The notes below the pieces were generated by a model. It saw nothing but the letters and a program-made list of their open reading frames with translations. It was not told the origin of the DNA and did no database searches. From a virus, in the IMG/VR virus record IMGVR_UViG_3300025276_000020: a stretch of 64,000 nt of DNA; one strand, 5' to 3'. Numbering within the stretch: position 1 is the stretch's first letter; every line of letters starts with the position of its first letter. This document shows, piece after piece, positions 1 through 14,110 of the stretch. The translations under genes were made by a program, and so were the position numbers.

Positions 1-8
1 TTATCGGA

Positions 9-239
9 ATGAAAGATATGCGAATAGAGATAGAAGAGGGAAATCTATCTGAGATGTGGCAGATACGCATGATTCTATTGATGGCAATGTTCATCGTGTA
101 TGAGCTTGGTTACATTGAACTATTCTACTACTGTCTTCCATACATCTTAATGGGCACAGTTGGTGACATATTTGCGACTCTTATGTTAATAGGATTCATA
201 GAATATAGTGGTGATAGGGATCCAGACGAGGAAGACTGA
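9..239 (+). CDS. hypothetical membrane protein
   Basis: 76-aa ORF with two hydrophobic segments, followed by a terminator. Confidence 0.5.
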   Translation: MKDMRIEIEEGNLSEMWQIRMILLMAMFIVYELGYIELFYYCLPYILMGTVGDIFATLMLIGFIEYSGDRDPDEED

Positions 240-266
240 GTATCTTCACACTTATTTACTAATTTT

Positions 267-290
267 AAAGGCTCTAACGAGCCTTTTTTT
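267..290 (+). terminator. intrinsic terminator
   Basis: AAAGGCTC-TAAC-GAGCCTTT hairpin plus T-run. Confidence 0.75.
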
Positions 291-297
291 ATAAATA
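290..297 (+). promoter_or_regulatory. T4-type late promoter heading the curli-like cluster
   Basis: TATAAATA, followed by AAGGAG SD and ATG at 320. Confidence 0.75.
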
Positions 298-319
298 ACT
301 ATAGTAAAGGAGTGAATTT

Positions 320-598
320 ATGGACGTGCTAAGTTTGATAGCAGATGTTGGGTTTCCAATTGCGGCAGCCCTGTCAGGTGGATTTTTCGTGTTTCTTACG
401 CTAAGGTTTATCCTCGACGGAGTATTGTCGGACATCAAAACACAAAGAGGCTTTGCACAAGCCTTAGATAATAGAATTAAGACGATGAACAATGAAGTCA
501 TGAGAATAGACCTCATGATTTGTCACGCTCACAATGTAAGCCCAGACCTGGATAGAGTGGCGAGAGCCGATGGTCAGAAAGATGCGAGGAAAGATTAA
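320..598 (+). CDS. small single-TM/coiled-coil protein (paralog of 975..1298)
   Basis: GFPIAAA TM segment then coiled coil LDNRIKTMNNEVMRID; strong SD. Confidence 0.75.
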   Translation: MDVLSLIADVGFPIAAALSGGFFVFLTLRFILDGVLSDIKTQRGFAQALDNRIKTMNNEVMRIDLMICHAHNVSPDLDRVARADGQKDARKD

Positions 599-801
599 TG
601 TACTATAAAGACTACGACTTAATGAAGTTCGATAACGGGTTTAGGGTTGTCAAAAAAGACAATCCAGACGATAAGTTTCATATGATCGATGAAGGTCTAT
701 TGAAGATAGGGGATACGTTTGTAGTTGGTCCTAGTGGCTACTTCGAACATAGAGGCAATATTATGGACGCATTTGAGGATACAGATAATGCTTTGGCTTG
801 A
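598..801 (+). CDS. hypothetical protein (paralog of 788..982)
   Basis: TAATG coupling; KIGDTFVVGPSGY motif shared with next ORF. Confidence 0.65.
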   Translation: MYYKDYDLMKFDNGFRVVKKDNPDDKFHMIDEGLLKIGDTFVVGPSGYFEHRGNIMDAFEDTDNALA

Positions 802-982
802 TTATAATATTAACCAAGTTGGCGCACATTTTAAAGTTGAGGGAGAGTGGGAAGGAGAAGTCATGGGTGTTCAAAAAGATGGAACAGCTAAAAACAACCA
901 CTTATATAAGCCAGGAGATACTTTCGTTGTAAACGAAAATGGATGGTTAATGAAAATAGGATCAGATAAAGAAGATGCCTGA
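788..982 (+). CDS. hypothetical protein (paralog of 598..801)
   Basis: Likely start ATG 788 (MLWLDY); KPGDTFVVNENGW motif. Confidence 0.65.
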   Translation: MLWLDYNINQVGAHFKVEGEWEGEVMGVQKDGTAKNNHLYKPGDTFVVNENGWLMKIGSDKEDA

Positions 983-1298
983 GGCAGAAACACTTAATAT
1001 TGCTGAGATGATCTCGCAATACGGCTTTCCAATTATAGCCGCAGTAGGACTAGGGTACTTCATATACTATATCTGGAACTGGGTAACGGAAGAGGTCGAT
1101 CCGGTTATTGGCGAGTCACATATGACACTGATAGCACTGATCGATAGAGTAAGAATGTTAGATAATGACTTGATTAGGCTCAAAACTAAACTGGACATGA
1201 TCTTACAACAACAGGATAAAAACGATTATGAAAAAATATTTGATAACAACCGTGATAGTACTAACAGCGGTGATGACATCTCATTCGACAGCAAGTGA
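975..1298 (+). CDS. small single-TM/coiled-coil protein (paralog of 320..598)
   Basis: GFPIIAAVGLGYFIYYIW then LIDRVRMLDNDLIRL. Confidence 0.75.
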   Translation: MPEAETLNIAEMISQYGFPIIAAVGLGYFIYYIWNWVTEEVDPVIGESHMTLIALIDRVRMLDNDLIRLKTKLDMILQQQDKNDYEKIFDNNRDSTNSGDDISFDSK

Positions 1299-1701
1299 GC
1301 TGACGCATGTATTTGTATCTCCAGCTTTTAATGGCAACGGTTACAGTTCGCACATACTGACAATAGAGCAGTTAGAGGCTAATAGAAGAAAAGAGATTAA
1401 GGACGAGAAAAAGGCACGGGAAGACGAAGCAGAACGTGATTTGAAATCTACCAATGCGTATAAGTTCCAGAACAATTTAGAGTCTAGAATTTATGCAACC
1501 CTCTCTAAGAATATAGCGGACTCGCTATTCGGTGAAGGTGGTGGAGAAACAATAGAAGGAGAATGGTACGAAGCAACTACTCCATTTGGAGATATAATTG
1601 CATGGAAACAAGAGGGCGGTAGAATATACGTAACTGTCACAGATTCCAATGGTGATATCGTTTCCGAATTTGACGTTCCTGTAGGAGATTTTTCGTTCTA
1701 A
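1228..1701 (+). CDS. csgF: curli assembly protein CsgF-like
   Basis: Signal peptide; mature N-terminus ELTHVFVSPAFNGNG resembles the CsgF N-terminal F-x-N-P-x-F-G-G motif; directly upstream of csgG. Confidence 0.75.
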   Translation: MKKYLITTVIVLTAVMTSHSTASELTHVFVSPAFNGNGYSSHILTIEQLEANRRKEIKDEKKAREDEAERDLKSTNAYKFQNNLESRIYATLSKNIADSLFGEGGGETIEGEWYEATTPFGDIIAWKQEGGRIYVTVTDSNGDIVSEFDVPVGDFSF

Positions 1702-2489
1702 TGAAACAATTTCTTGCGCTATTAGCATTAGTACTGACTACAAGTGGATGTGCTACACTGACCGAAGACTTTGGATTTAAGCCCGAGCCAGAAACAGCAA
1801 AAGTAGTTAAGAATGAAAATACGGAATTTCTTACTATGCCAGCTCCTTCTACAGGTAAAGCAGTTGTAGCAGTATATGGGTTCACTGATAAGACAGGACA
1901 GAGAAAGCCTAGTGAAAGAATGGCTAACATTAGTACCGCTGTCACGCAGGGCTCTGAAGTTTGGCTGATCAAGGCGCTTCAAGAAGTTGGAGGAGGCACT
2001 TGGTTTCAAGTAGTAGAGAGAATAGGGTTAGAAAATCTAACTAAAGAAAGGCAAATAATTCGTCAGAGCCGAGCGGCTGTGAAGGATACAAGAGAATTGA
2101 GACCGATGCTATTTGCAGGGGTCTTAGTAGAGGGAGGCATAATTGGATATGATTCCAATGTGCTAACCGGTGGTGCAGGTGCTCGATACTTAGGTGTCGG
2201 TCCCAGTACCCAATACAGACAGGACATAGTGACTGTAACTATTAGAATGGTAAGCGTACAAAGCGGAGAAGTGTTGTTAAGTGTTTCAACTACAAAAACT
2301 ATTATAAGCACTGGAACAAGCATGACATTCTTTAGATTTTTCGATATGGGCACAAACTCGCTAGAGGCAGAAATGGGTCATTCTATTAATGAACCCGTCA
2401 ATTATGCCGTAAGAGTTGCTATAGAGCAAGCCGTCGTTGAGTTGATTAAAGAAGGAGAAAGGAAGGAATACTGGCAATACGTTAAGTAG
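1701..2489 (+). CDS. csgG: curli secretion channel lipoprotein CsgG
   Basis: Lipobox TSGC; VAVYGFTDKTGQRKP, STAVTQG, WFQVVER.GL.NL.KERQIIR, EGGIIGYDSN, NEPV motifs. Confidence 0.93.
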   Translation: MKQFLALLALVLTTSGCATLTEDFGFKPEPETAKVVKNENTEFLTMPAPSTGKAVVAVYGFTDKTGQRKPSERMANISTAVTQGSEVWLIKALQEVGGGTWFQVVERIGLENLTKERQIIRQSRAAVKDTRELRPMLFAGVLVEGGIIGYDSNVLTGGAGARYLGVGPSTQYRQDIVTVTIRMVSVQSGEVLLSVSTTKTIISTGTSMTFFRFFDMGTNSLEAEMGHSINEPVNYAVRVAIEQAVVELIKEGERKEYWQYVK

Positions 2490-2587
2490 ACCTTTATAAA
2501 ATTATAACACCTTTGATATGAGGAGTAAGTAAAACTAAAAAAATATGTTCGTTGTCGGGAGAGATCGAACAAAACGGAGTAATACAT

Positions 2588-3280
2588 ATGAGCAATTTAA
2601 AGCTTTACACTATAGCACTGATCGCATTTGCGGCTTTTGCTACAACCACACACGCTAGTGACGTGTACATTGTGCAGGCTGGTTCTAGCAGTACAATCGA
2701 TATCACTCAAACCGGTAATGGCAACACCGTGGGTAATTCAACAACTGCCACAACCTTAAATGGCGATAGTCAGGACATAGATATCAGTCAACAAGGTAAT
2801 TCCAACAAAACGGATATATCCACGAGTGCAGGATCTAGTTCAACAACCATCAATATATTGAATACTGGTGACTCGAACGAAACTGTGATGGGTATTGCCA
2901 CAACCGGAACGACCTTCACTTCAACGGTGACAGGCGACAGCAATCTGGTAACAGTCTGCGGTACCAACGACAACTCTGGAGTTGCATCTGTAGGATCAGT
3001 TACGGACGGAGTATCGACTGCTTCTACCACAGGCACAATAGCAACCTGTACAACAGAGGTCAGCGTTACTGATACGACTACAACTCTAGCGACCACTGGT
3101 GATTATAACACAGTCAATCTAGAATTGGATGCTGCCGATGCAGTGAATACTATAACAGTTGGCGGTAATGTGTCTAGTAACTTCAATGAGATAAATCTCA
3201 CACAATCTACTACAGATATTCCTGTAGTTACTATGACAGTTGATGGTGATAGTAATGCGATTAACATCATACAGAATTAA
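2588..3280 (+). CDS. secreted curlin-repeat protein (CsgA/CsgB-like)
   Basis: Signal peptide; repeats ITQTGNGNTV, ISQQGNSNKT, NTGDSNET, VTGDSNLV, TTGDYNTV, VDGDSNAI; start at ATG 2588 after GGAG. Confidence 0.75.
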   Translation: MSNLKLYTIALIAFAAFATTTHASDVYIVQAGSSSTIDITQTGNGNTVGNSTTATTLNGDSQDIDISQQGNSNKTDISTSAGSSSTTINILNTGDSNETVMGIATTGTTFTSTVTGDSNLVTVCGTNDNSGVASVGSVTDGVSTASTTGTIATCTTEVSVTDTTTTLATTGDYNTVNLELDAADAVNTITVGGNVSSNFNEINLTQSTTDIPVVTMTVDGDSNAINIIQN

Positions 3281-4358
3281 TCTACTATTTACATTTATAC
3301 TATGTTTTGCTAGTTCCTTTGCGTTGGGTAATACTACGGAAACGATTGGTAGTATTACTTCGCAAAAGGGCAACCCTGCACAAATAACGAGAGATGGTGA
3401 TAGCATTTCTACGGAGAAGGGAACTGGTTTATCTATGGACGATGAGATCGTTACAGCAAAAACCAAACTGGGACTCACATTCATAGACGATACTAGAGTA
3501 AGTGTCACCGAACAATCCGTACTAATCATCGATGACTTTATCTATGATCCAAGTACTGGTACAGGCAAACTAGCAATGAACATCGCACTCGGCACTGTTA
3601 AGTACTCATCTGGTGCAATCGCAAGAAACTCAAGAGAAAATGTATCCCTAAAAACGCCCACTGCGACAATATCTGTTCGTGGTACTGACTTCACTATGAC
3701 CGTAGATGAACTGGGCAGAAGTATTGTTATTCTGTTACCGAGTTGTCCTCCCGTGGGCGATTGCTGGACAGGTGAGATTATGGTCTCTACCGAAGTGGGA
3801 CAGGTCATATTAAATCAGGCATATCAAGCAACATTAGTATCGAACAAAATGGCTACTCCGACTAAGCCTAAGATACTAGACATCACGGAAGCCAATATTG
3901 GTAACATGTTAATCATCACACCACCGCCAGAATTGAAAGGTATAGGATACATAGTTCAAGCAGAAGTTGCCGAATACTTAGATAGTGATTTGCTAGAATA
4001 TGCTGAACTAAATTCAGACGAATTAGAAGAAGATAAACTAGAATTCAAAGAGCTTGATGTAAACAGGCTAGACATAGATTTTCTATTCAACGTGCTAGAC
4101 GCTACTGCTATGCTACAAGACGAACAATTGGCTATTGACCCAGTTCTTCCTACAATAAATGCATATAGGACCACAGTTCAAGCATTCTACGATGAGGAAA
4201 AGATAGGCATTTATAGTGAAAGCTCTGTACACATTTCAGACGTAACTACCGAGCGTATAACAGACGGTGACGTAAACCTATACAAAGACAATGTGCCTGC
4301 ACTCATTCAGCTAAACGGAGGTGGAGATGTTATCATCAATATTACGCAAAGCCAGTAG
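3255..4358 (+). CDS. secreted FecR-domain protein
   Basis: Signal peptide; LTFIDDTRVSVTEQSVLIID and KTPTATISVRGTDF FecR motifs; acidic C-terminal half. Confidence 0.85.
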   Translation: MRLTSYRINLLFTFILCFASSFALGNTTETIGSITSQKGNPAQITRDGDSISTEKGTGLSMDDEIVTAKTKLGLTFIDDTRVSVTEQSVLIIDDFIYDPSTGTGKLAMNIALGTVKYSSGAIARNSRENVSLKTPTATISVRGTDFTMTVDELGRSIVILLPSCPPVGDCWTGEIMVSTEVGQVILNQAYQATLVSNKMATPTKPKILDITEANIGNMLIITPPPELKGIGYIVQAEVAEYLDSDLLEYAELNSDELEEDKLEFKELDVNRLDIDFLFNVLDATAMLQDEQLAIDPVLPTINAYRTTVQAFYDEEKIGIYSESSVHISDVTTERITDGDVNLYKDNVPALIQLNGGGDVIINITQSQ

Positions 4359-5313
4359 TATTATAATTCTAGCGTGGTTCATATCCTCAGACGCTTATGC
4401 TGATACGGGTACTCCAGTGATGAACGTAAGTTCACAAGGCTCTACTTATATCTACGTCTATAATGGCAATGATACAACAACCTTTGCTGATCTAGTAGCC
4501 TTAGGCAATAGTATTGTTGGATGGATTGCTACTATGACATCTTATAGCGGCTTTGGATCTGGTTCGGTAGGAGATACTGCTTTTGTATGCAGTGTCAGTG
4601 GCAGTGGCGACAATCTATTTTTAACTATGTGTGACGCTGATGGCAATAGTTTTACCCCTGCGGCAGGTTCCTGGTACTCCTTTTCAGCTCCTGCAGCCGA
4701 CGCAACTCCAGTTTACGGATCAACTGCGCCAACTACCGCACAGCAGACTAAAATAAATGCAAAACTCGCATTAGCCGCCGCAGGACAAGGTGACACAGTT
4801 GAAGCAAGCATAACAGGTAGCTTTAATGATATATTCATAACACAAGCTGGTGGTATAAGTTACCTAGACTTAATAATTACCGGCAATCTTAATAATGTCG
4901 ATACTGAGCAGGATCTAAATTCAGGATCACACGGATATATCGATGCCACTATAATTGGTAACAGTAATGACATAGACATACTACAAAAAGGCATCGGCAA
5001 CAAAGCCGCTGTACTTACCGTAACGGGAGATAGTAATGATGTCGATATAGCGCAACACGGTCTTGGTGATAAATTTATAGACTTAGAGATTACTGGCGAT
5101 AATCACAAGGCAGATATATTTCAAAACGGATCAGGCGCTCATTCTGCTAGAGTCGAACTCGATGGCTCACAGCCATGGGATTTCAAGTTAGAGCAAAGAG
5201 GAGCAACCGATAAGAATTACACATTGCCACATACCATGAGTGATGGAGCTGGAGTTAGTGGAACTTGTAATGCTTCAGGCGGTTGCAACCTAATAGTATA
5301 TCAAAATGACTAG
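4327..5313 (+). CDS. secreted curlin-repeat protein
   Basis: Signal peptide; ~22-24 aa repeats ITGSFNDIFITQ, ITGNLNNVDTEQ, IIGNSNDIDILQ, VTGDSNDVDIAQ, ITGDNHKADIFQ. Confidence 0.75.
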   Translation: MLSSILRKASSIIILAWFISSDAYADTGTPVMNVSSQGSTYIYVYNGNDTTTFADLVALGNSIVGWIATMTSYSGFGSGSVGDTAFVCSVSGSGDNLFLTMCDADGNSFTPAAGSWYSFSAPAADATPVYGSTAPTTAQQTKINAKLALAAAGQGDTVEASITGSFNDIFITQAGGISYLDLIITGNLNNVDTEQDLNSGSHGYIDATIIGNSNDIDILQKGIGNKAAVLTVTGDSNDVDIAQHGLGDKFIDLEITGDNHKADIFQNGSGAHSARVELDGSQPWDFKLEQRGATDKNYTLPHTMSDGAGVSGTCNASGGCNLIVYQND

Positions 5314-5473
5314 AGTCGATAAATCTCCTGTTGTTTACTGGACATCAGAATGGGTGAAAACTGGTAAGACAGAAGTCTATGCAGATAAGAACGGTGACAA
5401 GCGTACTAGACCCGAACTTAGTCTGGTAGGCGAACGAAATCCCAATTGGAAACCTATAGCAAGACGTTACTAA
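5306..5473 (+). CDS. 55-aa hypothetical protein (not in ORF track)
   Basis: MTRVDKSPVVYWTSEW...WKPIARRY*, overlapping the upstream stop. Confidence 0.5.
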   Translation: MTRVDKSPVVYWTSEWVKTGKTEVYADKNGDKRTRPELSLVGERNPNWKPIARRY

Positions 5474-5667
5474 ATAGATGTACAAAAGATACACATAGAA
5501 GAGTATATGTTGTGCGAATAGATAAAACATGGGGAGAGTGGCACTGGGTTAACGATGATGGTGTTACTGTAAGTCCTCGCTTTATAACAAAACAAGAGGC
5601 TTGCTACTGGCTAGTGCAATTCGAATGCGATAGATCAGAGCCAATGAAAGTAGATACAGAGACATGA
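5446..5667 (+). CDS. hypothetical protein (true start probably a later GTG)
   Basis: ORF coupled by ATGA overlap to the cyclase gene. Confidence 0.5.
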   Translation: METYSKTLLNRCTKDTHRRVYVVRIDKTWGEWHWVNDDGVTVSPRFITKQEACYWLVQFECDRSEPMKVDTET

Positions 5668-7700
5668 AAATCATCCTTTCGCCATTATTTGCTATTATCA
5701 CTACGCTAATTCTAGCGTGGGTAACACTATCTAATCCAACTCTACTACAAAGCATTGATCTAAAGATCGCAGATCAACTCATAGTCGAAGAAAAGCAATT
5801 CATCGATGATGTGGTATTAGTAGACATATCAGAAAAGACTTTAGAAACTCATGGGCAATACCCACTACCAAGAGACATCTACGGGGATTTAATCCTCAGA
5901 TTGCGTCAAGCGAATGCAGGCATTATCGTATTTAATCTATCATTCCCAGAAGAAGATCGAACAGGTCAAGACGAATATTTCACGGATATGCTCGGGCAAG
6001 GCGTCATCTTATCTCATTTCCCTAGTAATAAGGCTCAAAACAGATCAGCATACAGTACTGCTATTGTACAGGTTGGCGGTGATGCTTTGGATTATATTTA
6101 CAATTATCCTGGTATAGCCGCAAACTTAGAGAAGTACGAGAACGTAGCAACAGGCATTGGAATTGCAAATACTCTACCAGAAATTGATGGAGTAGTAAGA
6201 CGATTACCCATGCTTGCTGGAGTACAGGAATCCTTATATCCTTCAATCGTTTTAGAGATATTCAAGGCTTACACTGGATCAAATACCTTTCAAGTAAAAA
6301 ACAGCGAATTTGGTGTGACAGCAGTTAGAGTAAAAGGGTTTCCAATCATCAATACGGATTCCTTAAGCCGCATATGGATGAACCCAAACTATGATTTTAC
6401 TCGATATGATCTAACGGATACGATGCCAGATTTGAATGGAGCAACAGTTTTTGTTGGGGTTACTGCTGACGGCATATCAAACCCCGTACCTACGGCTTCT
6501 GGTGCTGTCTATGGGCACGATCTTACTGCTAGGGCATTCACATCCGTAAAGAATCAGTATAATATTGTTACTCACCCATTAGAAGAATTCATTAAACTTA
6601 TCGGAATCATTGTGCTAGGTCTTTCTATTATTGGTCTGAGCTATGTTAGATTTGGTTGGGCATTGTCTATAGGCATGACAGGCGCACTGATCTATCTTCC
6701 TGTATATTTCTTCAATACTGATCTATCACTACTGATCACTACAGTTCAAGGATTGATGGGCATCATGATTTTCACTCATGTCTATGCCGTCAAGTATGGA
6801 CAAGAATACTTTCAAAAGATGGCTATCAAGAAGCAGTTTGCTGGATATGCATCTCCTGCGGTCGTCAAGATGCTTCAAGAAAACCCTGCCTTAGTCAAGG
6901 ATGGAGTTAAGAAAGAAGTGTCAATTGTGTTCTCTGATCTTCGTGGCTTCACGCCTCTTGGTGAGTCGTTTGGTGACGATGTAAAGGGTCTTACTCAAGT
7001 GATGAACGGATACATGGATGCAATATCTAAACCAATTCTAGATGTAAATGGAATGGTTATCAAGTATATCGGTGATGCGTCTATGCACATACACAATGCT
7101 CCCATAGACGATCCAGATCACCCTAAGACTGGCATACAGACATGTCTCAACATGCTAAGAGCAGTGGAGGAATTCAATGAAGAACTTACAAAAACTGGTC
7201 GCCCACCAGTCGGCATGGGTGCCGGTATTAATACTGGTCTTGGTTATATTGGCGAAATGGGCTCTACTGCACGACACTCCTACGACATTCTCGGAGACGC
7301 AGTTAGTACGGCAGCCAGATTAGAAAGTTCGTGCAAAGCATATGGTGTTGTTCTGATCGTAGGTCCATCAACATATCAAGCAACCCGTGAAGACTTTTTC
7401 TACTTAAAATTAGATGATTTGGCAGTTAAAGGTAAGACAGTAGGACTAGACATATACACAGTACTTGATCTAGATTCCGAAGAGCATTACGGAGTTGAGA
7501 TCGCTAAACACGGGTACATGCATCATAAATACAGTTCTAGACAGTTCAATGAAGCTATTGAGCTATGCAAAGAACTCAAAGGAAGCTTCGAAGGTCATAT
7601 GGACGGGTACTACGACATATGGATAGAACGCTGTGCCTACATGGAAACACTGAACCTTCCAGACGATTGGGACGGAATCTTTAGAGCCACTAGCAAGTAA
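5664..7700 (+). CDS. CHASE2-domain class III adenylate/guanylate cyclase
   Basis: N-terminal TM; CHASE2 (VLVDISEKTL, DGVVRRLP); 3 TMs; cyclase motifs FSDLRGFT, KYIGDA, GINTG, YDILGDAVSTAARLE. Confidence 0.93.
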   Translation: MKIILSPLFAIITTLILAWVTLSNPTLLQSIDLKIADQLIVEEKQFIDDVVLVDISEKTLETHGQYPLPRDIYGDLILRLRQANAGIIVFNLSFPEEDRTGQDEYFTDMLGQGVILSHFPSNKAQNRSAYSTAIVQVGGDALDYIYNYPGIAANLEKYENVATGIGIANTLPEIDGVVRRLPMLAGVQESLYPSIVLEIFKAYTGSNTFQVKNSEFGVTAVRVKGFPIINTDSLSRIWMNPNYDFTRYDLTDTMPDLNGATVFVGVTADGISNPVPTASGAVYGHDLTARAFTSVKNQYNIVTHPLEEFIKLIGIIVLGLSIIGLSYVRFGWALSIGMTGALIYLPVYFFNTDLSLLITTVQGLMGIMIFTHVYAVKYGQEYFQKMAIKKQFAGYASPAVVKMLQENPALVKDGVKKEVSIVFSDLRGFTPLGESFGDDVKGLTQVMNGYMDAISKPILDVNGMVIKYIGDASMHIHNAPIDDPDHPKTGIQTCLNMLRAVEEFNEELTKTGRPPVGMGAGINTGLGYIGEMGSTARHSYDILGDAVSTAARLESSCKAYGVVLIVGPSTYQATREDFFYLKLDDLAVKGKTVGLDIYTVLDLDSEEHYGVEIAKHGYMHHKYSSRQFNEAIELCKELKGSFEGHMDGYYDIWIERCAYMETLNLPDDWDGIFRATSK

Positions 7701-7778
7701 TTAGTCCCATACCTTGGGACCGTGACCTGAGTATGTCGTAAAACTGCTCACTTTCCTCAAAAAACTTCAAAATAATGG

Positions 7779-7806
7779 TTGACTTTTCTGCCAGCCATGC
7801 TATAAT
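7779..7806 (+). promoter_or_regulatory. sigma70-type early promoter
   Basis: TTGACT-16nt-TATAAT with TG extension and A-rich upstream tract. Confidence 0.7.
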
Positions 7807-7838
7807 AGTTGTATAAAATAATGAAAGAGAGTGATAAT

Positions 7839-8129
7839 ATGACAGCATTTACCAAAGAAGACTTTACCTGGGACGGAATGTACCTAATGTATAGAGGCAG
7901 ACACACCCAGAGTGTGAACATGGAAGTCGCAAGACCTACTTGTCACCCATCTTGGCATGGGTTACCAAAGCCAGAATTCATCGCTAGATTCAAGTACGGA
8001 TATAAGCCTTGGAAAGCTTGGGTCAACTTCTTAGTTAAGAACACTACTGTTGAGCAATACTTGGCTCTACAAGAAGCAGAGCATCCAGTCGGTGCGATGA
8101 AAGCCTTAGGTTACAAGGGGAAGTGTTAA
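7839..8129 (+). CDS. hypothetical early protein
   Basis: ATG 7839 after GAGAG SD, downstream of early promoter. Confidence 0.65.
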   Translation: MTAFTKEDFTWDGMYLMYRGRHTQSVNMEVARPTCHPSWHGLPKPEFIARFKYGYKPWKAWVNFLVKNTTVEQYLALQEAEHPVGAMKALGYKGKC

Positions 8130-8314
8130 TGATAGAGTATTTTAAAGAAATCACGGTGTGGGATAGCAATATCCCAAATCACACATACATGATCGATAAA
8201 GACGGTCATCTCGTTGGGTACATCAAAACAGGTACCACCGAAGAAATCATCTTCGGCAAGCCCATGAAGCAGTTTTCTAAGTCCCGCAGAAAATTCGTCA
8301 AGCTAAAAAGGTAG
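8123..8314 (+). CDS. hypothetical protein
   Basis: Coupled to the upstream ORF (likely ATG 8129); basic C-terminus FSKSRRKF. Confidence 0.6.
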   Translation: MLMIEYFKEITVWDSNIPNHTYMIDKDGHLVGYIKTGTTEEIIFGKPMKQFSKSRRKFVKLKR

Positions 8315-8372
8315 TATAAATATCTCACTTTTGCATAAAAAGACTTGACACAGGATTTATATCGTGTATAAT
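8315..8372 (+). promoter_or_regulatory. tandem late (TATAAATA) and sigma70 (TTGACA-16-TATAAT) promoters
   Basis: TATAAATA 8315-8322; TTGACA 8345-8350; TATAAT 8367-8372. Confidence 0.7.
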
Positions 8373-8415
8373 AAAGTTATAGACTTAGAAGTATAATCAA
8401 CAGAGGCTAATCTAA

Positions 8416-9009
8416 ATGAATATTAAAACAACTGGATATTGGTTATCGGGTGCTATGTCAGTAGCATGTTTACTTGGTTTGTCGTACATGGGTGTTCATG
8501 TTGCTCAAGTGCAAGCTAATGAAGTTGCGACAATAAAGAAAGCTCAAGAAGTCTCTATTGTCCAAGCACAAATACTCCGTGAAGAAAGAGAGTATGAGTA
8601 CGCAACTCAACATCGCTGTCTAGCGTTAAATATATATCACGAGGCTAGAAGTGATGGAGACTTAGGTCAACAAGCAGTTGGCTTTGTTACTATGAATAGG
8701 GTAGAGAATGATAGGTATCCTGAGACCATATGTGACGTTGTGTATCAAGCACACGTGAACGCAAAGGGTAGTCCAATCATAAACAAGTGCCAATTTTCTT
8801 GGTATTGTGACGGTAAATCAGACACCCCAAAAGATAAAGAACGTATTCATACTGCCATGTTAGTGGCAGAATATGTCATGTCGCAATATAATAAGATACC
8901 TGATATGACAGGTGGTGCTATTATGTACCATGCTCACTACAGTAATCCATACTGGTCTAAGGCATACGAGCGTACAGTACGAATAGATAGTCATATATTC
9001 TACAAATAA
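8416..9009 (+). CDS. SleB-like cell wall hydrolase (Hydrolase_2)
   Basis: CLALNIYHEARS, V.MNRV, YP.TIC.VVYQ, CQFSWYCDG, YHA.Y..P.W, HIFY; N-terminal TM anchor. Confidence 0.92.
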   Translation: MNIKTTGYWLSGAMSVACLLGLSYMGVHVAQVQANEVATIKKAQEVSIVQAQILREEREYEYATQHRCLALNIYHEARSDGDLGQQAVGFVTMNRVENDRYPETICDVVYQAHVNAKGSPIINKCQFSWYCDGKSDTPKDKERIHTAMLVAEYVMSQYNKIPDMTGGAIMYHAHYSNPYWSKAYERTVRIDSHIFYK

Positions 9010-9029
9010 GATAGGTGTGAAAGTTAGTA

Positions 9030-10238
9030 ATGATAGATACAAGCAAGTTCCAGGACGTGATAACAGGCTTAAAAAATAGCGGTAATTACAGAGTCTTTAA
9101 TGACATAATACGTGAGAGAGGTGAATTCCCTCAAGCATTATATTACGGTCCATATAACATTAAGAACATAGTTAATTGGTGTAGTAATGACTATCTGGGC
9201 ATGGGACAACACAAAGTAGTATTAGATGCAATGCACACGGCTTTAGATCAGACTGGTGCAGGTAGTGGCGGTACTAGAAATATTGCAGGTACTAGCCACT
9301 ATCATGTTGCATTAGAGCGTGAACTTGCCGAATTGCACAATAAAGAAAGCGCACTGTTGTATACTAGTGCTTATGTGGCAAACGAGTGGACGTTAATTGC
9401 TCTCAGTAAGATTATTCCAGATATAGAATTTGTGAGCGACAGTAAGAACCACGCAAGTCTTATTCAAGGCATGAAACACAGTGGTGCACCCAAGCACGTA
9501 TTTGAACACAATAACATGGAACAGTTGCGTGAAGTCCTATCTAATATAAAGGGTACTCCTTGCATTGTGTTTGAAAGCGTGTATAGTATGGATGGATATG
9601 TAAGCTTAATCGAAGAGATACTGGATATAGCTGAAGAATATAAAGCTATGACGTATATAGATGAAGTACATGCTGTTGGATTATATGGAAATACTGGCGC
9701 AGGATTCACTGAGTTATTGGGAGTGCAACATAGAGTTGACTTCATCAATGGAACGCTAGGTAAGGCTTTTGGTTGTCAAGGAGGATACATATCTGGCGAT
9801 GCCATTGCTATCGATGCTATACGCAGTATTGCGAGTGGATTCATATTTACAACAAGTCTAAGCCCAGTGATGTGTGCAGGTGCATTGAGTGCTATCAAGT
9901 ATCTTAAGAGCAGTAATGGTGTGGAGCTGAGAGCTATTCACCAAGAACGTGCAAAGAAACTAAAAGACGTACTCAAGGAAAGAGATATAGATGTGCTAGA
10001 GAATGAAACTCATATCGTGCCTGTTATGATAGGAGATGCTGTAAGATGTAAGTCTGTCAGCGATGAACTTATTACACGTTACGATATATATGTACAACCT
10101 ATAAATTATCCGACAGTATCTATGGGAACTGAAAGACTTAGATTTGCGCCTACTCCACTACACACAGATGCTATGATGCTCGATTTAGCTGAAAAACTCA
10201 AAGAAATAATAGGATTTAGAAAGTCAAACTTTTTATAA
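9030..10238 (+). CDS. hemA: 5-aminolevulinate synthase (PLP-dependent, C4 pathway)
   Basis: WCSNDYLGMGQH, GAGSGGTRNI, NHASLIQG, ESVYSMDG, DEVHAVGLYG, GTLGKAFG, FIFTTSL, YVQPINYPTV, ERLRFAP. Confidence 0.95.
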   Translation: MIDTSKFQDVITGLKNSGNYRVFNDIIRERGEFPQALYYGPYNIKNIVNWCSNDYLGMGQHKVVLDAMHTALDQTGAGSGGTRNIAGTSHYHVALERELAELHNKESALLYTSAYVANEWTLIALSKIIPDIEFVSDSKNHASLIQGMKHSGAPKHVFEHNNMEQLREVLSNIKGTPCIVFESVYSMDGYVSLIEEILDIAEEYKAMTYIDEVHAVGLYGNTGAGFTELLGVQHRVDFINGTLGKAFGCQGGYISGDAIAIDAIRSIASGFIFTTSLSPVMCAGALSAIKYLKSSNGVELRAIHQERAKKLKDVLKERDIDVLENETHIVPVMIGDAVRCKSVSDELITRYDIYVQPINYPTVSMGTERLRFAPTPLHTDAMMLDLAEKLKEIIGFRKSNFL

Positions 10239-10241
10239 ATA
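10234..10241 (+). promoter_or_regulatory. T4-type late promoter
   Basis: TATAAATA upstream of 10275. Confidence 0.7.
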
Positions 10242-10274
10242 AGACTAGTAAATCAAATAATAAGGAACCCAATC

Positions 10275-10979
10275 GTGTTAACGTTTGAAAATTATCTTAA
10301 AGAAGAGTTTGTTACCCTTAAGAGGGAACTAGAAGAAGGTGTCAACGATCCAGCTATTTTTAAAGCAGTGTTCTTAGCCGGTGGACCTGGCTCTGGTAAA
10401 TCATTCATTGTTGGTAAGACTGGACTCACATCGCTTGGATTCAAAGTTGTCAACTCTGATGACGCATTCGAGAAAGCAATGGCTAAAGCAGGTATGGAGA
10501 TGGACCCAGAGAATATCTTCTCTGTGCAAGGTCAAGAGTTACGTGGTAAAGCAAAAGTCTTAACAGGCGTTAAGCAAGCAATGTATATTAAAGGTCGTTT
10601 AGGGTTAGTCATCGATGGTACTGGTAAAGATACTCAGAAGTTGATCAAACAGGCAAAATCGTTAAAATCTATTGGGTATGACACTAGTATGATCTTTGTT
10701 AACACCGATCTAGCTACAGCGCAGTCACGTAATAAAGCACGTAAACGTACACTACCTGAAGATGAAGTAGAGCAGTATTGGACAACAGTTCAGAAAAACA
10801 TTGGTGCATTCCAGACGTTTTTCGGCAAGCAAAAGTTTACTGTAGTAGATAACTCTGAAGGTAAAGACTACGGCGTAGAGACTCTACGAGCTTATAAAGA
10901 AGTCACTAAATTCGTGAAAGCAAAGCCTGATAATTCCAGTGCTAAAGCATGGATTAAGGCACAACGAAAAACAAGGTAA
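10275..10979 (+). CDS. P-loop kinase, zeta-toxin/AAA_33-like
   Basis: Walker A GGPGSGKS, VNSDD, LVIDGTG, R-N-x-x-R-x-R lid. Confidence 0.8.
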   Translation: MLTFENYLKEEFVTLKRELEEGVNDPAIFKAVFLAGGPGSGKSFIVGKTGLTSLGFKVVNSDDAFEKAMAKAGMEMDPENIFSVQGQELRGKAKVLTGVKQAMYIKGRLGLVIDGTGKDTQKLIKQAKSLKSIGYDTSMIFVNTDLATAQSRNKARKRTLPEDEVEQYWTTVQKNIGAFQTFFGKQKFTVVDNSEGKDYGVETLRAYKEVTKFVKAKPDNSSAKAWIKAQRKTR

Positions 10980-10993
10980 TCTTAGGAGGCAAT

Positions 10994-11143
10994 ATGTCTA
11001 ACGTGATCGAATTTCCTACAAAGCCGAAGCCTACCGAAGTTGAACTTCAAGCTACACAAATAGGAGAACAGGCTACCCTTATTGAATTGCAGATGCTAGA
11101 GATACAAAAACTCCAGCGTCTTATGGAAGAGAAAGATATTTAA
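10994..11143 (+). CDS. 49-aa coiled-coil protein (not in ORF track)
   Basis: AGGAGG SD; MSNVIEFPTKPKP...LMEEKDI*. Confidence 0.6.
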   Translation: MSNVIEFPTKPKPTEVELQATQIGEQATLIELQMLEIQKLQRLMEEKDI

Positions 11144-11178
11144 TGTAACGCATTGAGCGTTTGAATTGGAGATGTTAA

Positions 11179-11715
11179 TTGAATTTAAAAGAACTAACGT
11201 GGGATAACCACAGAGATGCTGAACGCAAGAAGTTTGCATCAATCCTAATGAGTGGCAAGATAGACCCAGCCCTCTATCATCGATACCTCGTAAATCAATT
11301 TTATAACTACGTTTCACTAGAGTACAAGTTACCTCTAACGGAACTTGGTCTGACCGATATTGCCAGGTCTCAATTGATAGGAGAAGATATTCGTGAACTC
11401 GAAGACTTATATGGATTTGATAGAATGGATATTACAATCGCACAATGTACTAAGGATTATACCGAGTACTGCGAGAACTTATATGAGAATGATAAAGATG
11501 GTCTAGTGGCACATATGTATGTCCGACACTTTGGAGATATGTACGGCGGAGCTATGATCGCTAAACGTATTCCTGGTAGTGGCAAGATGTACCAGTTTGA
11601 GAAAGTAGAAGAACTAAAAACGAATGTTCGTAATCTGTTGAGTGACAGTATGGCACCAGAGGCTAATAGATGTTTTAAATTTGCAATAAGGCTATTTGAG
11701 GAGTTATTACAATGA
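11179..11715 (+). CDS. hemO: heme oxygenase (biliverdin-producing)
   Basis: LKELT..NH..AE proximal His; AHMYVRHFGDMYGG distal helix. Confidence 0.92.
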   Translation: MNLKELTWDNHRDAERKKFASILMSGKIDPALYHRYLVNQFYNYVSLEYKLPLTELGLTDIARSQLIGEDIRELEDLYGFDRMDITIAQCTKDYTEYCENLYENDKDGLVAHMYVRHFGDMYGGAMIAKRIPGSGKMYQFEKVEELKTNVRNLLSDSMAPEANRCFKFAIRLFEELLQ

Positions 11716-11864
11716 AAGAAAGTAAGAGCGAACTTGACGCAACATACGAGAAAGTCATGGAAGCATTCGATAGGCGAGAACATCGCCAAAAACGAATGAA
11801 CCTGATGATCTTAGGTCTATATGCAGTAATAGTGATTACTATGTTTGTGGGAGCATGGTTATGA
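11712..11864 (+). CDS. 50-aa C-terminally anchored membrane peptide (not in ORF track)
   Basis: MKESKSELDA...LMILGLYAVIVITMFVGAWL*; ATGA overlaps with both hemO and pcyX. Confidence 0.65.
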   Translation: MKESKSELDATYEKVMEAFDRREHRQKRMNLMILGLYAVIVITMFVGAWL

Positions 11865-12544
11865 GTATAGTATGGAAAAGTCTCATCGATCTACAAGATC
11901 ACTTCATAGAGGAGTTTTCTGGCAGTGGAATCGAAGTACAAGAACCTGGTATGGAGCAGTTCAACAAACCTGGTTGGGTAAATAGAGTTTGGACATCCCA
12001 AGACTATCGTAGGGCACACGTTGATGTTGTCGATATGCGTGAAGAGAAGAAGATGTGGATGATGCACGTCTGTGTGTTTCCTCACACCGATAGTGATGCA
12101 CCTATCTATGGATTTGATGTAATAGCTGGTGCTAATAAGATGACTGGCGCATTCCACGATTTCTCTGCTACGACTAATATAGAACACCCAATGATTGATT
12201 GGTTTGGTACGGTCGCATCTGCACTATCATGGAAGAGAGAGCGAGAGTTACCTGAATGGGCTAAAGCTATATTCACTGATCATATGATTGCCGCAGGTAT
12301 GGTTAAAGATCCTATAGAGATTGCACAGATAACTGGCACGGCAATGGAAACACTATCATATTATCTCAAAGAAATCGGTAACTATAACGGATACTCTTCA
12401 CAAGAATTGGGCATAGCCACACAGAATAACTATGCACATTATCAGAAACAGAATCCTCACACACCTAACGTAATGAAGAGCCTAGGCATCGATCCTGATG
12501 ACGTAGACTTATTCATTCAGAAGTGTCTTTTTCCAGAGCTTTAA
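11861..12544 (+). CDS. pcyX: ferredoxin-dependent bilin reductase, PcyX-type
   Basis: WVNRVW, RRAHVDVVD, HVCVFP, PIYGFDVIAG, GAFHDFS, ERELPEWAKAIF, QKQNPHTP, LFP; adjacent to heme oxygenase. Confidence 0.88.
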   Translation: MSIVWKSLIDLQDHFIEEFSGSGIEVQEPGMEQFNKPGWVNRVWTSQDYRRAHVDVVDMREEKKMWMMHVCVFPHTDSDAPIYGFDVIAGANKMTGAFHDFSATTNIEHPMIDWFGTVASALSWKRERELPEWAKAIFTDHMIAAGMVKDPIEIAQITGTAMETLSYYLKEIGNYNGYSSQELGIATQNNYAHYQKQNPHTPNVMKSLGIDPDDVDLFIQKCLFPEL

Positions 12545-12630
12545 TAGTCTTTCGTATACATAGAAAGTAGGGTAATTCTGCCCTACATTTTGTGAGCGAC
12601 AGGGTAAAGCTGTCAAACAAGGAGAAAGAT

Positions 12631-12945
12631 ATGAAATCATTACTAGTTGTAATACTAGCAGTACTGTCTACGAGCGCATTCGCCGCACCATACGTAGAAT
12701 ATTCGAATCAACAACGATACACAGACCTGGACTACTCAGGTAAGTACAATCATGTACGCATTGGATACAAAGCAGACAATGGAATATACCTCGAAGCAGG
12801 TAGAGATCAAGACGGCAACGCTTTTGAGACTGGATATAGTTTCAATTTTAACGAGCGACTGAGCATTAATGGTAAGTGGGAAGGTTCCAATACCGATAAG
12901 CTGAGACACACTGTTGAGACTGAGATCAGGTACACATTTAAGTAA
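12631..12945 (+). CDS. small outer-membrane beta-barrel-like protein
   Basis: Signal peptide ending AFA; alternating aromatic strands; C-terminal EIRYTFK beta-signal. Confidence 0.7.
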   Translation: MKSLLVVILAVLSTSAFAAPYVEYSNQQRYTDLDYSGKYNHVRIGYKADNGIYLEAGRDQDGNAFETGYSFNFNERLSINGKWEGSNTDKLRHTVETEIRYTFK

Positions 12946-12954
12946 GGATATATT

Positions 12955-13914
12955 ATGGAACTACTAACTATCTGGAGCCTTATTGGGTTTCTTTTTGCCG
13001 CTTATGCAGTAATTGCAAATGATTCAGTGCAGACGCTCGGCACTTGGATGGCATCAAACAATGAGCGATTCAACTACAAGACTATGTGGGCAGCCGCAAG
13101 TGCTGTGCTACTAGCAACACTGTGGTATGGTTGGACTGTAAATGGTGGAGACATCAGTTATGGTCGATTGAATAAGATTCCCTGGCAAGAAGTTCAGTGG
13201 TATCATGCCGCCGCACCAGGAATACTCGTACTACTTACAAGACTAGGTGTACCGGTATCAACATCCTTTCTAGTGTTGAGTGCTTTTGCAAGTACTTTTG
13301 TGCTAGAAAAGATGTTGATGAAGAGCATCATGGGTTATGGTATTGCCGCTCTGTTTGCATACGGTGTGTGGTACGTTGTATCACGTACACTTGATGAGGC
13401 AGAACCAGTACAAGAAAAGAACAAAAACTATTGGCGAATAGCGCAGTGGTTTGCAACAGGCGGATTATGGTGGACTTGGTTGTCGCATGATATGGCTAAT
13501 ATTGCTGTGTTCTTACCTCGTGTTGTGCCAGTCGATCTAATGTTCTTGATATCATCTGTTTTCGTGATTGGTCTATTCTTTATGTTTAAAGAACGAGGTG
13601 GTAAGATTCAACAGATTGTACTAGAGAAGCACAACACAAGATATGTCCGTAGTGCAACTCTGATCGATTTGTTCTATTGGTTATGTCTGTACTTCTTCAA
13701 AGAACTTAATGATATTCCTATGTCAACTACGTGGGTCTTTGTTGGTATGCTTGCTGGTCGTGAACTTGCTATCGCAACGTTTACAGGTAAGATGAAAATA
13801 AAATCTGTATTCCCTTTAGTGGGAAGAGACTTTATGAAGATGATGATTGGACTCGGTGCTTCAGTTGCTATCGTCTTAACAATACATTATGTACTGATAC
13901 CAAACGGACTATAA
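12955..13914 (+). CDS. PiT/PHO4-like membrane transporter
   Basis: Multi-TM with duplicated signatures ANDSVQTLG / HDMANIA and GVPVSTS / IPMSTT. Confidence 0.65.
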   Translation: MELLTIWSLIGFLFAAYAVIANDSVQTLGTWMASNNERFNYKTMWAAASAVLLATLWYGWTVNGGDISYGRLNKIPWQEVQWYHAAAPGILVLLTRLGVPVSTSFLVLSAFASTFVLEKMLMKSIMGYGIAALFAYGVWYVVSRTLDEAEPVQEKNKNYWRIAQWFATGGLWWTWLSHDMANIAVFLPRVVPVDLMFLISSVFVIGLFFMFKERGGKIQQIVLEKHNTRYVRSATLIDLFYWLCLYFFKELNDIPMSTTWVFVGMLAGRELAIATFTGKMKIKSVFPLVGRDFMKMMIGLGASVAIVLTIHYVLIPNGL

Positions 13915-13915
13915 A

Positions 13916-14062
13916 ATGATAGATAGGGTCAGGAAAGCATTGACAGGTAAAAGATCACGTGTTATACTGATCCTATCCTTCACATTCTTCTTAGTGAAGG
14001 GTCTCGCATGGTTAGCTCTATGGGCATATGCGATGTATTTTGGTTACACATTTTTTGATTAA
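13916..14062 (+). CDS. 48-aa membrane peptide (not in ORF track)
   Basis: MIDRVRKALTGKRSRVILILSFTFFLVKGLAWLALW...*. Confidence 0.5.
   Translation: MIDRVRKALTGKRSRVILILSFTFFLVKGLAWLALWAYAMYFGYTFFD
13940..13968 (+). promoter_or_regulatory. sigma70-type promoter upstream of tmRNA
   Basis: TTGACA-17nt-TATACT with TG extension. Confidence 0.55.
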
Positions 14063-14066
14063 TGTC

Positions 14067-14104
14067 TTGACAAGTGCGTCAAAATGGTGTAAACTGTATA
14101 AATA
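14067..14104 (+). promoter_or_regulatory. stacked sigma70 and T4 late promoters for tmRNA
   Basis: TTGACA(14067)-17-TAAACT(14090); TATAAATA 14097-14104. Confidence 0.65.
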
Positions 14105-14110
14105 AGACGT

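Follow-up and report, generated by a model that had tools for sequence, protein, structure and literature searches.

A divergent viral curli-type secretion module predicted to include a FecR-fold protein and a CHASE2 adenylate cyclase in an uncultured marine T4-like phage

We analyzed a 64,000-nucleotide window (the whole stretch of DNA considered here) of the IMG/VR record IMGVR_UViG_3300025276_000020, which derives from an uncultured marine T4-like myophage with a G+C content of about 40%. The first 10,000 nucleotides of the window are dominated by one series of plus-strand reading frames, and the block that is the subject of this study was read at positions 290-7720 of the plus strand. It holds 12 open reading frames (ORFs) between positions 320 and 7700, which encode homologs of the curli secretion proteins CsgF and CsgG, two curlin-like proteins with an exported FecR-fold protein between them, a class III adenylate cyclase with a CHASE2 domain, and a number of small proteins (Table 1). 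Judged from its sequence, the block represents a divergent version of the type VIII secretion (curli) module known from pelagiphages and other marine viruses.

Genes and signals of the block

The csgF and csgG genes lie next to each other on one strand, and the csgF stop codon and the csgG start codon have base 1701 in common. The CsgF homolog is preceded by a signal peptide, and its mature N terminus carries a P.F.G.N-type motif; a phmmer search with CsgF against the PDB gave nothing beyond a spurious match to a designed protein. The CsgG homolog, a predicted outer-membrane lipoprotein channel, reaches 183.7 bits against a Pfam cut-off of 20.8, contains a lipobox (..TSGC), and aligns with CsgG of Escherichia coli (E = 7.5e-49) with the lipobox cysteine in register. 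The Asn of the constriction loop is retained, and the Tyr and Phe found there in E. coli are replaced. Pfam searches of the 12 ORFs of the block gave no match to the periplasmic gate CsgE, to CsgC, or to the regulator CsgD, and these proteins are likewise missing from the viral module in PMC9599517. Here and below, numbered loci (L001 and so on) are those compared in this study. The CsgG ORFs of the viral loci L022, L030, L031, L043, L048, L053, and L060 are 385 to 415 residues long, compared with 262 residues in the window, and the longer ORFs have a C-terminal extension of more than 100 residues.

Both curlin-like proteins are predicted to be Sec-exported curlin-repeat proteins, with CsgG-dependent export and amyloid formation as putative properties. 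Curlin 1 is rich in Thr, Asn, and Ser. Taken alone, it falls below the cut-off of the Pfam family Curlin_rpt (18.4 versus 20.7 bits); the profile of its 45-member family matches the curlin-repeat structure 8c50 (E = 3.4e-11) and E. coli CsgA (8enq, E = 6e-4), and the NCBIfam model for CsgA matches with an E value of 3e-4. Its AlphaFold2 (AF2) model consists of paired 7-residue strands with a predicted local distance difference test score (pLDDT) of 72.7. A Foldseek search with this model returned nothing at E <= 0.001, and the weak matches were to beta-solenoid proteins, including FapC. Curlin 2 is matched by the NCBIfam models for CsgA (E = 2e-7) and CsgB (E = 4e-7). In the window and in L003-L007, a nonrepeat N-terminal domain (residues ~27 to 165; positions 4327-4820 in the window) precedes the curlin repeats of this protein, and Melnitz and HTVC008M, two cultured phages that carry the module, do not have it. 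The protein ends with C.....GCNLIVYQND, and two Cys residues just before the C-terminal strand (C.....GC...Q) are present in nearly all proteins of the curlin 2 type.

The gene between the two curlin genes encodes a protein with a FecR domain (Pfam PF04773, E = 1.5e-7, 32.2 bits versus a cut-off of 24). Its AF2 model (mean pLDDT of 79.8) consists of a signal helix, a FecR beta-sandwich (residues 32 to 200, pLDDT of about 95), a disordered acidic linker (233 to 303), and a six-strand C-terminal beta domain (308 to 365, pLDDT of 81 to 86). When compared using VIA-align, the sandwich superposes on the signaling domain of PupR (6ovk) with a Z score of 15.2 and a root mean square deviation (rmsd) of 2.5 Å over 134 residues. 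The N-terminal half of the sandwich also matches part of an adhesin, its "cell surface anchoring domain" (5ix9; Z = 10.2, rmsd of 2.3 Å, 73/76 residues), and the nearest NCBIfam models to the FecR domain are those of the Leptospira surface adhesin Lsa33 and the lipoprotein LipL45. In FecR/PupR systems, an outer-membrane protein is contacted by this domain from within the periplasm. PupR-type regulators and the protein of the window share this periplasmic fold. Those regulators, however, also have a cytoplasmic anti-sigma domain and a membrane anchor, and they act with an extracytoplasmic function (ECF) sigma factor and a TonB-dependent transducer. In the window protein the signal peptide runs directly into the FecR domain, with neither anti-sigma domain nor anchor, and Pfam searches detected no ECF sigma factor and no TonB-dependent transducer among the ORFs of the block. 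Since it lacks the anti-sigma domain and the anchor, the protein is not a Fec-type iron regulator.

The C termini of the FecR-fold protein and the curlins resemble each other. A motif composed of hydrophobic-x-hydrophobic-x-Q followed by 0 to 3 residues terminates 67 of 73 phage FecR proteins and 90 of 124 curlin ORFs, compared with 41 of 1618 background ORFs and none of the bacterial stand-alone FecR partners described below. In the window, it is present in curlin 1 (..AINIIQN), in the FecR-fold protein (..IINITQSQ), and in curlin 2 (..NLIVYQND). E. coli CsgA and CsgB likewise end in such a strand. A true curlin repeat was also considered for the C-terminal domain of the FecR-fold protein and was rejected: Pfam Curlin_rpt matched 0 of 48 members, and the model has the look of a small beta-sandwich with only weak immunoglobulin (Ig)-like matches (Z of about 3).

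The last gene of the block encodes a predicted inner-membrane receptor cyclase. Pfam identifies a CHASE2 domain (114 bits, residues 16 to 319) and a Guanylate_cyc domain (58 bits). Hydropathy indicates an N-terminal transmembrane segment (3 to 21), a periplasmic CHASE2 region (~23 to 310), and a hydrophobic block (310 to 380), and the C-terminal half comprises the catalytic domain (~415 to 600) and a tail of 75 residues. Alignments with cyclases of the PDB located the metal ligands D425 and D471, the specificity pair K467-D541, and the transition-state residue R552. The Lys-Asp pair is that of adenylate cyclases, and the enzyme is predicted to produce cyclic AMP (cAMP). D425, D471, K467, and R552 are invariant in the 59 to 60 relatives aligned at each site, and the position of D541 varies (D/T/S). 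The site of the usual transition-state Asn is occupied by Ser548 (VSTAAR) in the window; Ser is found in 30 of 59 relatives and Asn in the other 29. Two catalytic types occur, Lys-Asp with Ser (30 relatives) and Lys-Thr/Ser with Asn (17 relatives).

The two halves of the cyclase, CHASE2 with the transmembrane region and the cyclase domain with the tail, have separate histories and different nearest relatives. L003 and L004 are 81 to 90% identical to the window over the CHASE2 region, with 87% for CHASE2 itself, and 34 to 47% identical over the cyclase domain, and the pattern is reversed in L006 and Melnitz. In pairwise comparisons of 48 loci, the divergence of the FecR domain correlated with that of CHASE2 (rho = 0.44) and much less with that of the cyclase domain (0.12), while the value for CHASE2 versus the cyclase domain was 0.30 and the values within each half were 0.75 to 0.78. 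That the divergence of FecR tracks that of CHASE2 is no more than a suggestive hint that the parts of the module work jointly. A complex prediction for the FecR domain (22 to 225) and the periplasmic domain of CHASE2 (23 to 310) with 48-row alignments scored 0.16 versus a mark of 0.32 and gives no verdict.

Four small genes, designated A, B, B', and A', precede csgF. Protein A has a GFPI-type hydrophobic segment at residues ~10 to 32, followed by a conserved helix with the pattern ALDNR..MN.D..RID, as judged from hydropathy and alignment. Of 39 loci for which both flanks are available, 33 contain the A/A' pair, which lies upstream on the same strand in 11 loci and 3' of the cyclase gene on the other strand in 21. 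Among 50,697 GenBank phage records, A was found in 6, which are exactly those that carry the module and include Melnitz and HTVC008M. This confinement suggests that A and A' are parts of the module and not general genes of T4-like phages. Neither protein belongs to a Pfam or NCBIfam family, and neither has a histidine kinase family match or motif. Two names for A/A' were considered and rejected. A histidine kinase is not supported by any kinase signal, and the names in the source records are "hypothetical" or a spurious "FlaH"; the automatic ESM Atlas name "MotA/TolQ/ExbB" has no backing in Pfam. Weak matches to YvrJ in 19 of 49 family members (best E = 0.0038) are a lead only. The Melnitz counterpart of B is placed after the cyclase gene, and B' has relatives in L005, L009, L017, L024, and L034 and is frequently flanked by A and A' in related loci.

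Between curlin 2 and the cyclase gene, the segment from 5306 to 5667 is an insertion point whose content varies: the window has two small ORFs there, L005 has nothing, and further loci have up to several kilobases of other genes. Within this segment, metagenome contigs diverge or break off, with loose ends at 5517-5632.

The 12 ORFs abut or overlap each other except for a gap of 98 nucleotides before curlin 1, a hairpin follows the cyclase gene, and the next gene has its own promoter; on these grounds, the block looks like a single transcription unit. The gene upstream of it stops at position 239. The octamer TATAAATA that precedes the block, a T4-type late-promoter motif, occurs 13 times in the window versus 6.6 expected and is by itself modestly enriched; among 14 related loci in which A heads the module, 8 have it 23 to 48 nucleotides upstream of this gene. 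It is this promoter motif alone that points to late expression of the block. One metatranscriptome run contained contigs 90 to 98% like parts of A, B/B', A'/CsgF, CsgG, curlin 1, FecR, and the cyclase, and as carry-over of DNA is possible, these contigs are no proof of transcription, strand, or timing.

An initial annotation of this DNA had proposed a same-strand operon of the named genes behind a late-promoter motif, and the Pfam searches and the ORF map place all of these elements where it had put them. It erred in starting the operon at csgF, which four small ORFs precede. The two small ORFs that it listed before the cyclase gene do exist but are not conserved members of the module.

Table 1 Features of the block, of its flanks, and of the Henriciella locus L166
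Feature	Sequence	Position	Strand	Description
Terminator-like hairpin	Window	267-286	+	Belongs to the upstream gene; followed by a T run
T4-type late-promoter octamer TATAAATA	Window	290-297	+	Directly after the hairpin; 23 nucleotides before the first ATG (320)
Ribosome-binding site	Window	308-313	+	AAGGAG
A	Window	320-598	+	Small membrane protein, 92 residues; phrog_18771, PHROG E = 5e-26
B	Window	598-801	+	Small soluble protein, 67 residues; tblastn matches in L001 and L005; no Pfam family
B'	Window	788-982	+	64 residues; paralog of B, common motif K.GDTFVV; no Pfam family above cut-off
A'	Window	975-1298	+	107 residues; paralog of A; phrog_18771, PHROG E = 2.6e-30; overlaps the csgF start
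CsgF homolog	Window	1228-1701	+	157 residues, signal peptide; Pfam PF10614, E = 1.9e-13, 51 bits; phrog_35372, E = 1e-40
CsgG homolog	Window	1701-2489	+	262 residues, outer-membrane lipoprotein channel (predicted); Pfam PF03783, E = 3.7e-54
Curlin-like protein 1	Window	2588-3280	+	230 residues, signal peptide; mature start SDVYIVQAG, end ..AINIIQN
FecR-domain protein	Window	3240/3255-4358	+	367 residues from ATG at 3255 (earlier TTG at 3240); phrog_37870, E = 6e-89
Curlin protein 2	Window	4321/4327-5313	+	~328 residues, signal peptide; Pfam Curlin_rpt, 31.6 bits versus cut-off of 20.7
Small ORF 1	Window	5306-5473	+	Relatives in L003 and L004 only
Small ORF 2	Window	5446-5667	+	No relative among the compared viral loci
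CHASE2 class III adenylate cyclase (predicted)	Window	5664-7700	+	678 residues; phrog_35576, E = 6e-154
Hairpin GTCCCA-TACCT-TGGGAC	Window	7704-7720	+	6 bp, no T run; just after the cyclase stop codon
Sigma-70-like promoter	Window	7779-7806	+	Strong, 11/12 matches; serves the gene after the block
TATAAATA octamer of the hydrolase gene	Window	8315
SleB-type cell wall hydrolase	Window	8315-9009		Segment with the gene and its promoter signals; Pfam Hydrolase_2, E = 4.5e-23
Sigma-70-like promoter of the hydrolase gene	Window	8345-8372		Perfect match
csgF	L166	6466-6963
csgG	L166	6960-7781
Curlin	L166	7774-9288		504 residues
FecR	L166	9411-10451
CHASE2 cyclase	L166	10414-12489

The module in other viruses

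The gene order of the block has been published. Wittmers et al. 2022 (PMC9599517) described an HK-CsgF-CsgG-CsgA/B-FecR-CsgA/B-adenylate cyclase region (HK, histidine kinase) in pelagiphages and in podo- and myoviruses. The region was found at all 65 GOV2.0 stations, transcripts were detected in metatranscriptomes, and podovirus modules without the cyclase exist (PMC9599517). A csgF/csgG cluster in pelagimyophages had been reported by Zaragoza-Solas et al. 2020 (PMC7029224), and Buchholz et al. 2022 (PMC9004378) modeled the pore of phage Melnitz and proposed a role in lysis timing. The OM43 phage Melnitz and the SAR11 phage HTVC008M carry the same genes in the same order as the window, and the genes are annotated as such. 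The initial annotation had presented the putative substrates and the signaling output as additions to what was known; the whole architecture was already described in 2022 (PMC9599517).

We examined the conservation of the module in the best 80 of at least 598 IMG/VR contigs that encode a CsgG relative; the viral counts in this study refer to this set, with the informative loci as denominators. CsgF is encoded upstream of CsgG in 76 of 76 loci. FecR lies downstream of CsgG in all 61 loci with sufficient flank, and a gene for CHASE2 plus a cyclase domain is found within 10 kb of CsgG in 44 of 45, in 42 of them on the same strand. The initial annotation had named the loss of FecR and cyclase from the neighborhood of csgFG in relatives as evidence that would speak against its interpretation; both genes are conserved there, and also in Melnitz and HTVC008M. 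The FecR gene stands between two curlin genes in essentially every module.

The window and the Melnitz/pelagiphage module are alike in the order of small genes, CsgF, CsgG, curlin, FecR, curlin, and cyclase, and every conserved gene of the block has a PHROG family built from the published module-carrying phages. The proteins are only 31 to 48% identical to those of the cultured phages, and a megablast search of positions 1-8400 against GenBank phages gave no nucleotide match. The closest relatives of the window are the uncultured contigs L003-L005 (CsgG identity of 86 to 90%), and near-identical DNA is present in marine metagenomes of about 10 studies. Compared with Melnitz and HTVC008M, only the window has the B/B' pair between A and A', the two nonconserved ORFs before the cyclase gene, and the N-terminal domain of curlin 2; the G+C content of about 40% is a further difference. 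Two published labels, "histidine kinase" for the small upstream genes and iron regulator for FecR, find no support in the window. The paralogs A and A' precede csgF and may correspond to the one or two small "HK" genes placed there in PMC9599517. The CHASE2 domain is not mentioned in PMC9599517.

The block and the curli operons of E. coli (csgBAC-csgDEFG; structures 6l7a, 6si7, and 8enq) have in common the CsgG lipoprotein, CsgF, and the curlin-repeat subunits. The block differs in that its subunits are larger and Thr-rich, that a FecR-fold protein and a receptor cyclase are encoded within the operon, and that CsgE, CsgC, and CsgD are missing.

Downstream of the block, a gene for a SleB-type cell wall hydrolase, a candidate endolysin, has its own octamer and promoter (Table 1). 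It follows the module in the window and in L003-L005 and is not adjacent to it in many other loci. In the segment 9030-12544, a 5-aminolevulinate-synthase-like gene lies directly after the hydrolase gene.

Bacterial FecR-CHASE2 cassettes and the Henriciella operon

Scans of bacterial genomes with the single cyclase or FecR protein found nothing, and profiles were needed. A search of one genome per prokaryotic species with a FecR profile gave two tiers of hits. The first consisted of eleven phage-type modules binned into metagenome-assembled genomes (MAGs) of unrelated phyla. Phage-type modules with A/A' are found in the MAG contigs L083-L091, L164, L172, L180, and L190, and the MAGs are assigned to Pelagibacter, Rhodobacteraceae, Flavobacteriaceae, Legionellales, Polynucleobacter, Luteolibacter, Pirellulales, and Sphingobacteriales. 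Most likely, these are mis-binned phage contigs.

The second tier consisted of true bacterial homologs. In 18 loci from Omnitrophota, Myxococcota, Planctomycetota, Spirochaetota, and Alphaproteobacteria, a CHASE2 cyclase gene lies 1 to 2 kb from the FecR gene and there is no CsgG. All 18 have a gene for a TPR protein of about 480 residues directly upstream of FecR, and such a gene is present in no phage locus. The TPR repeats are N-terminal, and the C-terminal part matches SlipAM, a surface-lipoprotein translocon family, with 20.5 bits versus a Pfam cut-off of 22. The FecR partners have ordinary signal peptides and no lipoboxes. As far as can be told from these sequences, bacteria thus have a curli-free cassette consisting of a predicted TPR/barrel-like protein, one or more FecR proteins, and a CHASE2 cyclase. 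Phage module and bacterial cassette both encode an exported FecR protein beside a CHASE2 receptor, and in both the receptor is arranged alike in the membrane and has a class III cyclase output. They differ in that the phage has CsgG/CsgF and curlins where the bacterial cassette has the TPR/SlipAM-like gene, in that the bacterial FecR partners lack the curlin-type C terminus, and in that the bacterial cyclases form a clade apart from the phage cyclases in a FastTree phylogeny.

Related arrangements have been reported. The BiofilmReg operon of Burkholderia encodes a LysM-FecR protein and a CHASE2 histidine kinase (PMC5192318). In Sinorhizobium meliloti, the CHASE2 cyclase gene cyaD1 lies beside smc02177, which encodes a FecR domain, and smc02178, in a system with Clr; a CyaD1 construct without CHASE2 produces cAMP constitutively (PMC5498481).

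Several further observations concern individual bacterial loci. In L127, a deltaproteobacterial FecR-CHASE2 cassette, a gene for an MscS-type channel with a cyclic nucleotide (cNMP)-binding domain (13573-15027, minus strand) adjoins the cyclase gene, and the channel is a possible local cAMP effector. L096, from a "Rickettsiales" MAG, contains at 5180-15351 an ORF for a FecR-domain protein of 1317 residues and, about 4 kb further on, a CHASE2 cyclase gene followed by A and A' on the same strand, with no CsgG within reach. The alphaproteobacterial FecR proteins of L101, L104, L125, and L139 (about 510 residues) end with ..N....(V/I)Q, unlike the phage motif, and this C terminus may be another sorting signal.

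A search with a CsgG profile identified 66 bacterial CsgF-CsgG loci without FecR or cyclase, mostly from Sphingomonadales, Rhizobiales, and Balneolales, in agreement with Wittmers et al. (PMC9599517). The one exception is a Henriciella MAG, in which five module genes stand in a row on one strand of a 397-kb contig (L166 in Table 1). The locus has a host-like G+C content of 48 to 55% and is flanked by ordinary metabolic genes. The five families and their order are those of the window; the Henriciella locus has no A/A' and one curlin instead of two, and its FecR protein ends with ..SVFILE, without the terminal Gln. The FastTree phylogeny places its cyclase within the polytomy at the base of the phage clade and apart from the 18 bacterial stand-alone cyclases. 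This type of operon was found in 1 of 151 genomes of the family, and it names neither the donor nor the direction of transfer. The locus does show that the joined curli-FecR-cyclase design occurs in a cell too.

Possible coupling of fiber export to cAMP synthesis

With moderate confidence, we favor the interpretation that the block joins the export of a fiber to an envelope sensor that makes cAMP. Late in infection, the CsgG/CsgF pore would export the two curlins, which would form amyloid-type fibers on the cell surface. The FecR-fold protein and the CHASE2 cyclase would represent a sensor cassette taken over from bacteria. In the bacterial cassette, the TPR/barrel protein beside FecR-CHASE2 would be the presumed outer-membrane component, which in the phage and in Henriciella would have been replaced by CsgG/CsgF and curlins. 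The FecR-fold protein would have acquired a C-terminal domain with the ending of a curlin subunit, and this ending makes docking on the pore, the subunits, or the fiber probable. Once docked, it would report the state of the envelope or surface to CHASE2, which would set the synthesis of cAMP in the cytoplasm. A search of Melnitz, HTVC008M, and three large related contigs found no cNMP-binding domain (PF00027), so the reader of cAMP would be encoded by the host. Aggregation of cells ("sibling capture"), exclusion of other phages, and lysis timing are candidate purposes.

The initial annotation had proposed that the pore or fiber is coupled to cyclic nucleotide synthesis via FecR and CHASE2, and we consider this plausible. 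It is consistent with the bacterial FecR-CHASE2 cassettes, with the parallel divergence of FecR and CHASE2, and with the curlin-like end of the FecR-fold protein; the dispensability of the FecR gene in S. meliloti is contrary to it.

A number of points weigh against our interpretation. In S. meliloti, the plant signal is perceived even without smc02177, which is in turn a target of cAMP/Clr (PMC5498481), and a FecR neighbor may therefore be an output and not a co-sensor. The covariation of FecR and CHASE2 could reflect linkage of the DNA and not contact. Given that Curlin_rpt matches none of the 48 C-terminal domains of the FecR family and that the modeled domain has only weak Ig-like matches, the terminal motif is all that makes this end curlin-like. 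The Ser at the usual Asn site means that the activity of the cyclase could be low, the phage records mentioned above contain no cNMP-binding domain of their own, and the late-promoter motif is just about twofold enriched in the window. Melnitz-infected cells were unclumped (PMC9004378), which speaks against strong fiber-mediated aggregation under the conditions of that study. We found no experimental work on any gene of the module in the literature.

A broader form of our interpretation, which we offer tentatively as a possibility that may well prove wrong, is that the module is the phage version of a widespread, hitherto undescribed three-layer bacterial design made up of an outer-membrane component, an exported FecR-fold adaptor, and a CHASE2 receptor. 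The outer part would have been swapped for amyloid secretion, FecR would report the export of the fiber or its contact with another cell, a particle, or a phage, and A/A' would take part in the relay.

Two other explanations seem to us improbable, and to a similar degree. One follows Buchholz et al. 2022 and considers the module a pore for lysis timing: CsgG/CsgF would be a gated outer-membrane pore comparable to a pinholin or secretin, with the curlins and FecR as plugs or gates, A/A' as holin/antiholin-like proteins, and the cyclase timing the opening. Such a role was proposed for Melnitz from structural modeling and synteny, and Melnitz infections proceed without clumping (PMC9004378). The replaced Tyr and Phe of the CsgG constriction, the SleB-type hydrolase after the block here and in L003-L005, and the build of A/A', which have the Gly/Ala-rich hydrophobic segment plus helix of small phage membrane proteins and weak YvrJ matches in 19 of 49 members, fit this view. 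However, two curlin-repeat proteins with signal peptides are retained in nearly all modules, which is costly for a plug, and an outer-membrane pore of about 1 nm would by itself leave the inner membrane polarized. Moreover, no other T4-like phage in GenBank has A/A', so these cannot be general lysis genes of the group, and the hydrolase gene is not adjacent in many loci.

The other is that two functions merely travel together, with the curli genes providing fibers or a pore and FecR-CHASE2 separately raising the cAMP level of the host for metabolic reprogramming. Each half does occur without the other, as seen in the curli-free bacterial cassettes, in the 66 bacterial CsgF-CsgG loci without FecR or cyclase, and in the podovirus modules without cyclase (PMC9599517), and in some phage loci the cyclase gene is inverted or several kilobases away. 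What argues against independence is the intimacy of the arrangement: FecR stands between two curlin genes in essentially every module and, unlike its stand-alone relatives in bacteria, bears the curlin-type motif at its C terminus, co-occurrence with CsgG is 61/61 for FecR and 44/45 for the cyclase, and the five genes are also joined in the Henriciella chromosome.

It is decidedly unlikely, in our view, that the FecR-fold protein is itself cargo, exported via or beside CsgG as a surface adhesin or cap, with CHASE2 sensing something else. Its proximity to Lsa33 and LipL45 in NCBIfam, the match to the cell surface anchoring domain 5ix9 (Z = 10.2), and a C terminus that resembles those of the exported curlins are in line with this, as is the position of bacterial FecR, always after a gene for a TPR protein that weakly matches SlipAM. 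That match remains below the cut-off (20.5 versus 22 bits), though, and the signal peptides of the bacterial FecR partners are ordinary ones without lipoboxes; in addition, a folded beta-sandwich of about 170 residues is too big for the CsgG constriction unless it is exported unfolded. Very improbable is an uptake channel, in which an open, ungated CsgG would import nutrients or iron compounds and FecR would be an iron-related regulator (Wittmers et al. 2022), an idea raised in PMC9599517 and PMC7029224 and compatible with the lack of a CsgE family among the module ORFs, but one that leaves CsgF and two curlin genes unexplained and is at odds with a FecR-fold protein that has neither the anti-sigma domain nor the anchor of iron-citrate-type regulators and with a block that has no TonB-dependent transducer or ECF sigma factor.

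The value of the window is mainly confirmatory, in that it adds one more, rather divergent, member to a published family. Leads that go beyond the published papers are the CHASE2 identity of the sensor, the bacterial three-gene cassette, the Henriciella operon, the mosaic of sensor and output, the curlin-type ending of FecR, and the restriction of A/A' to the module. The block abounds in ocean viruses, with at least 598 IMG/VR contigs and a presence at all 65 GOV2.0 stations (PMC9599517), and it would equip streamlined hosts that lack curli genes with an entirely new structure in the envelope during infection. If the three-layer design applies, the infected cell would turn the state of its surface amyloid into cAMP. 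If FecR-CHASE2 does read the pore or the fiber, this would provide the first ligand context for a CHASE2 domain and would be the first case of a virus wiring amyloid secretion to the synthesis of a second messenger.

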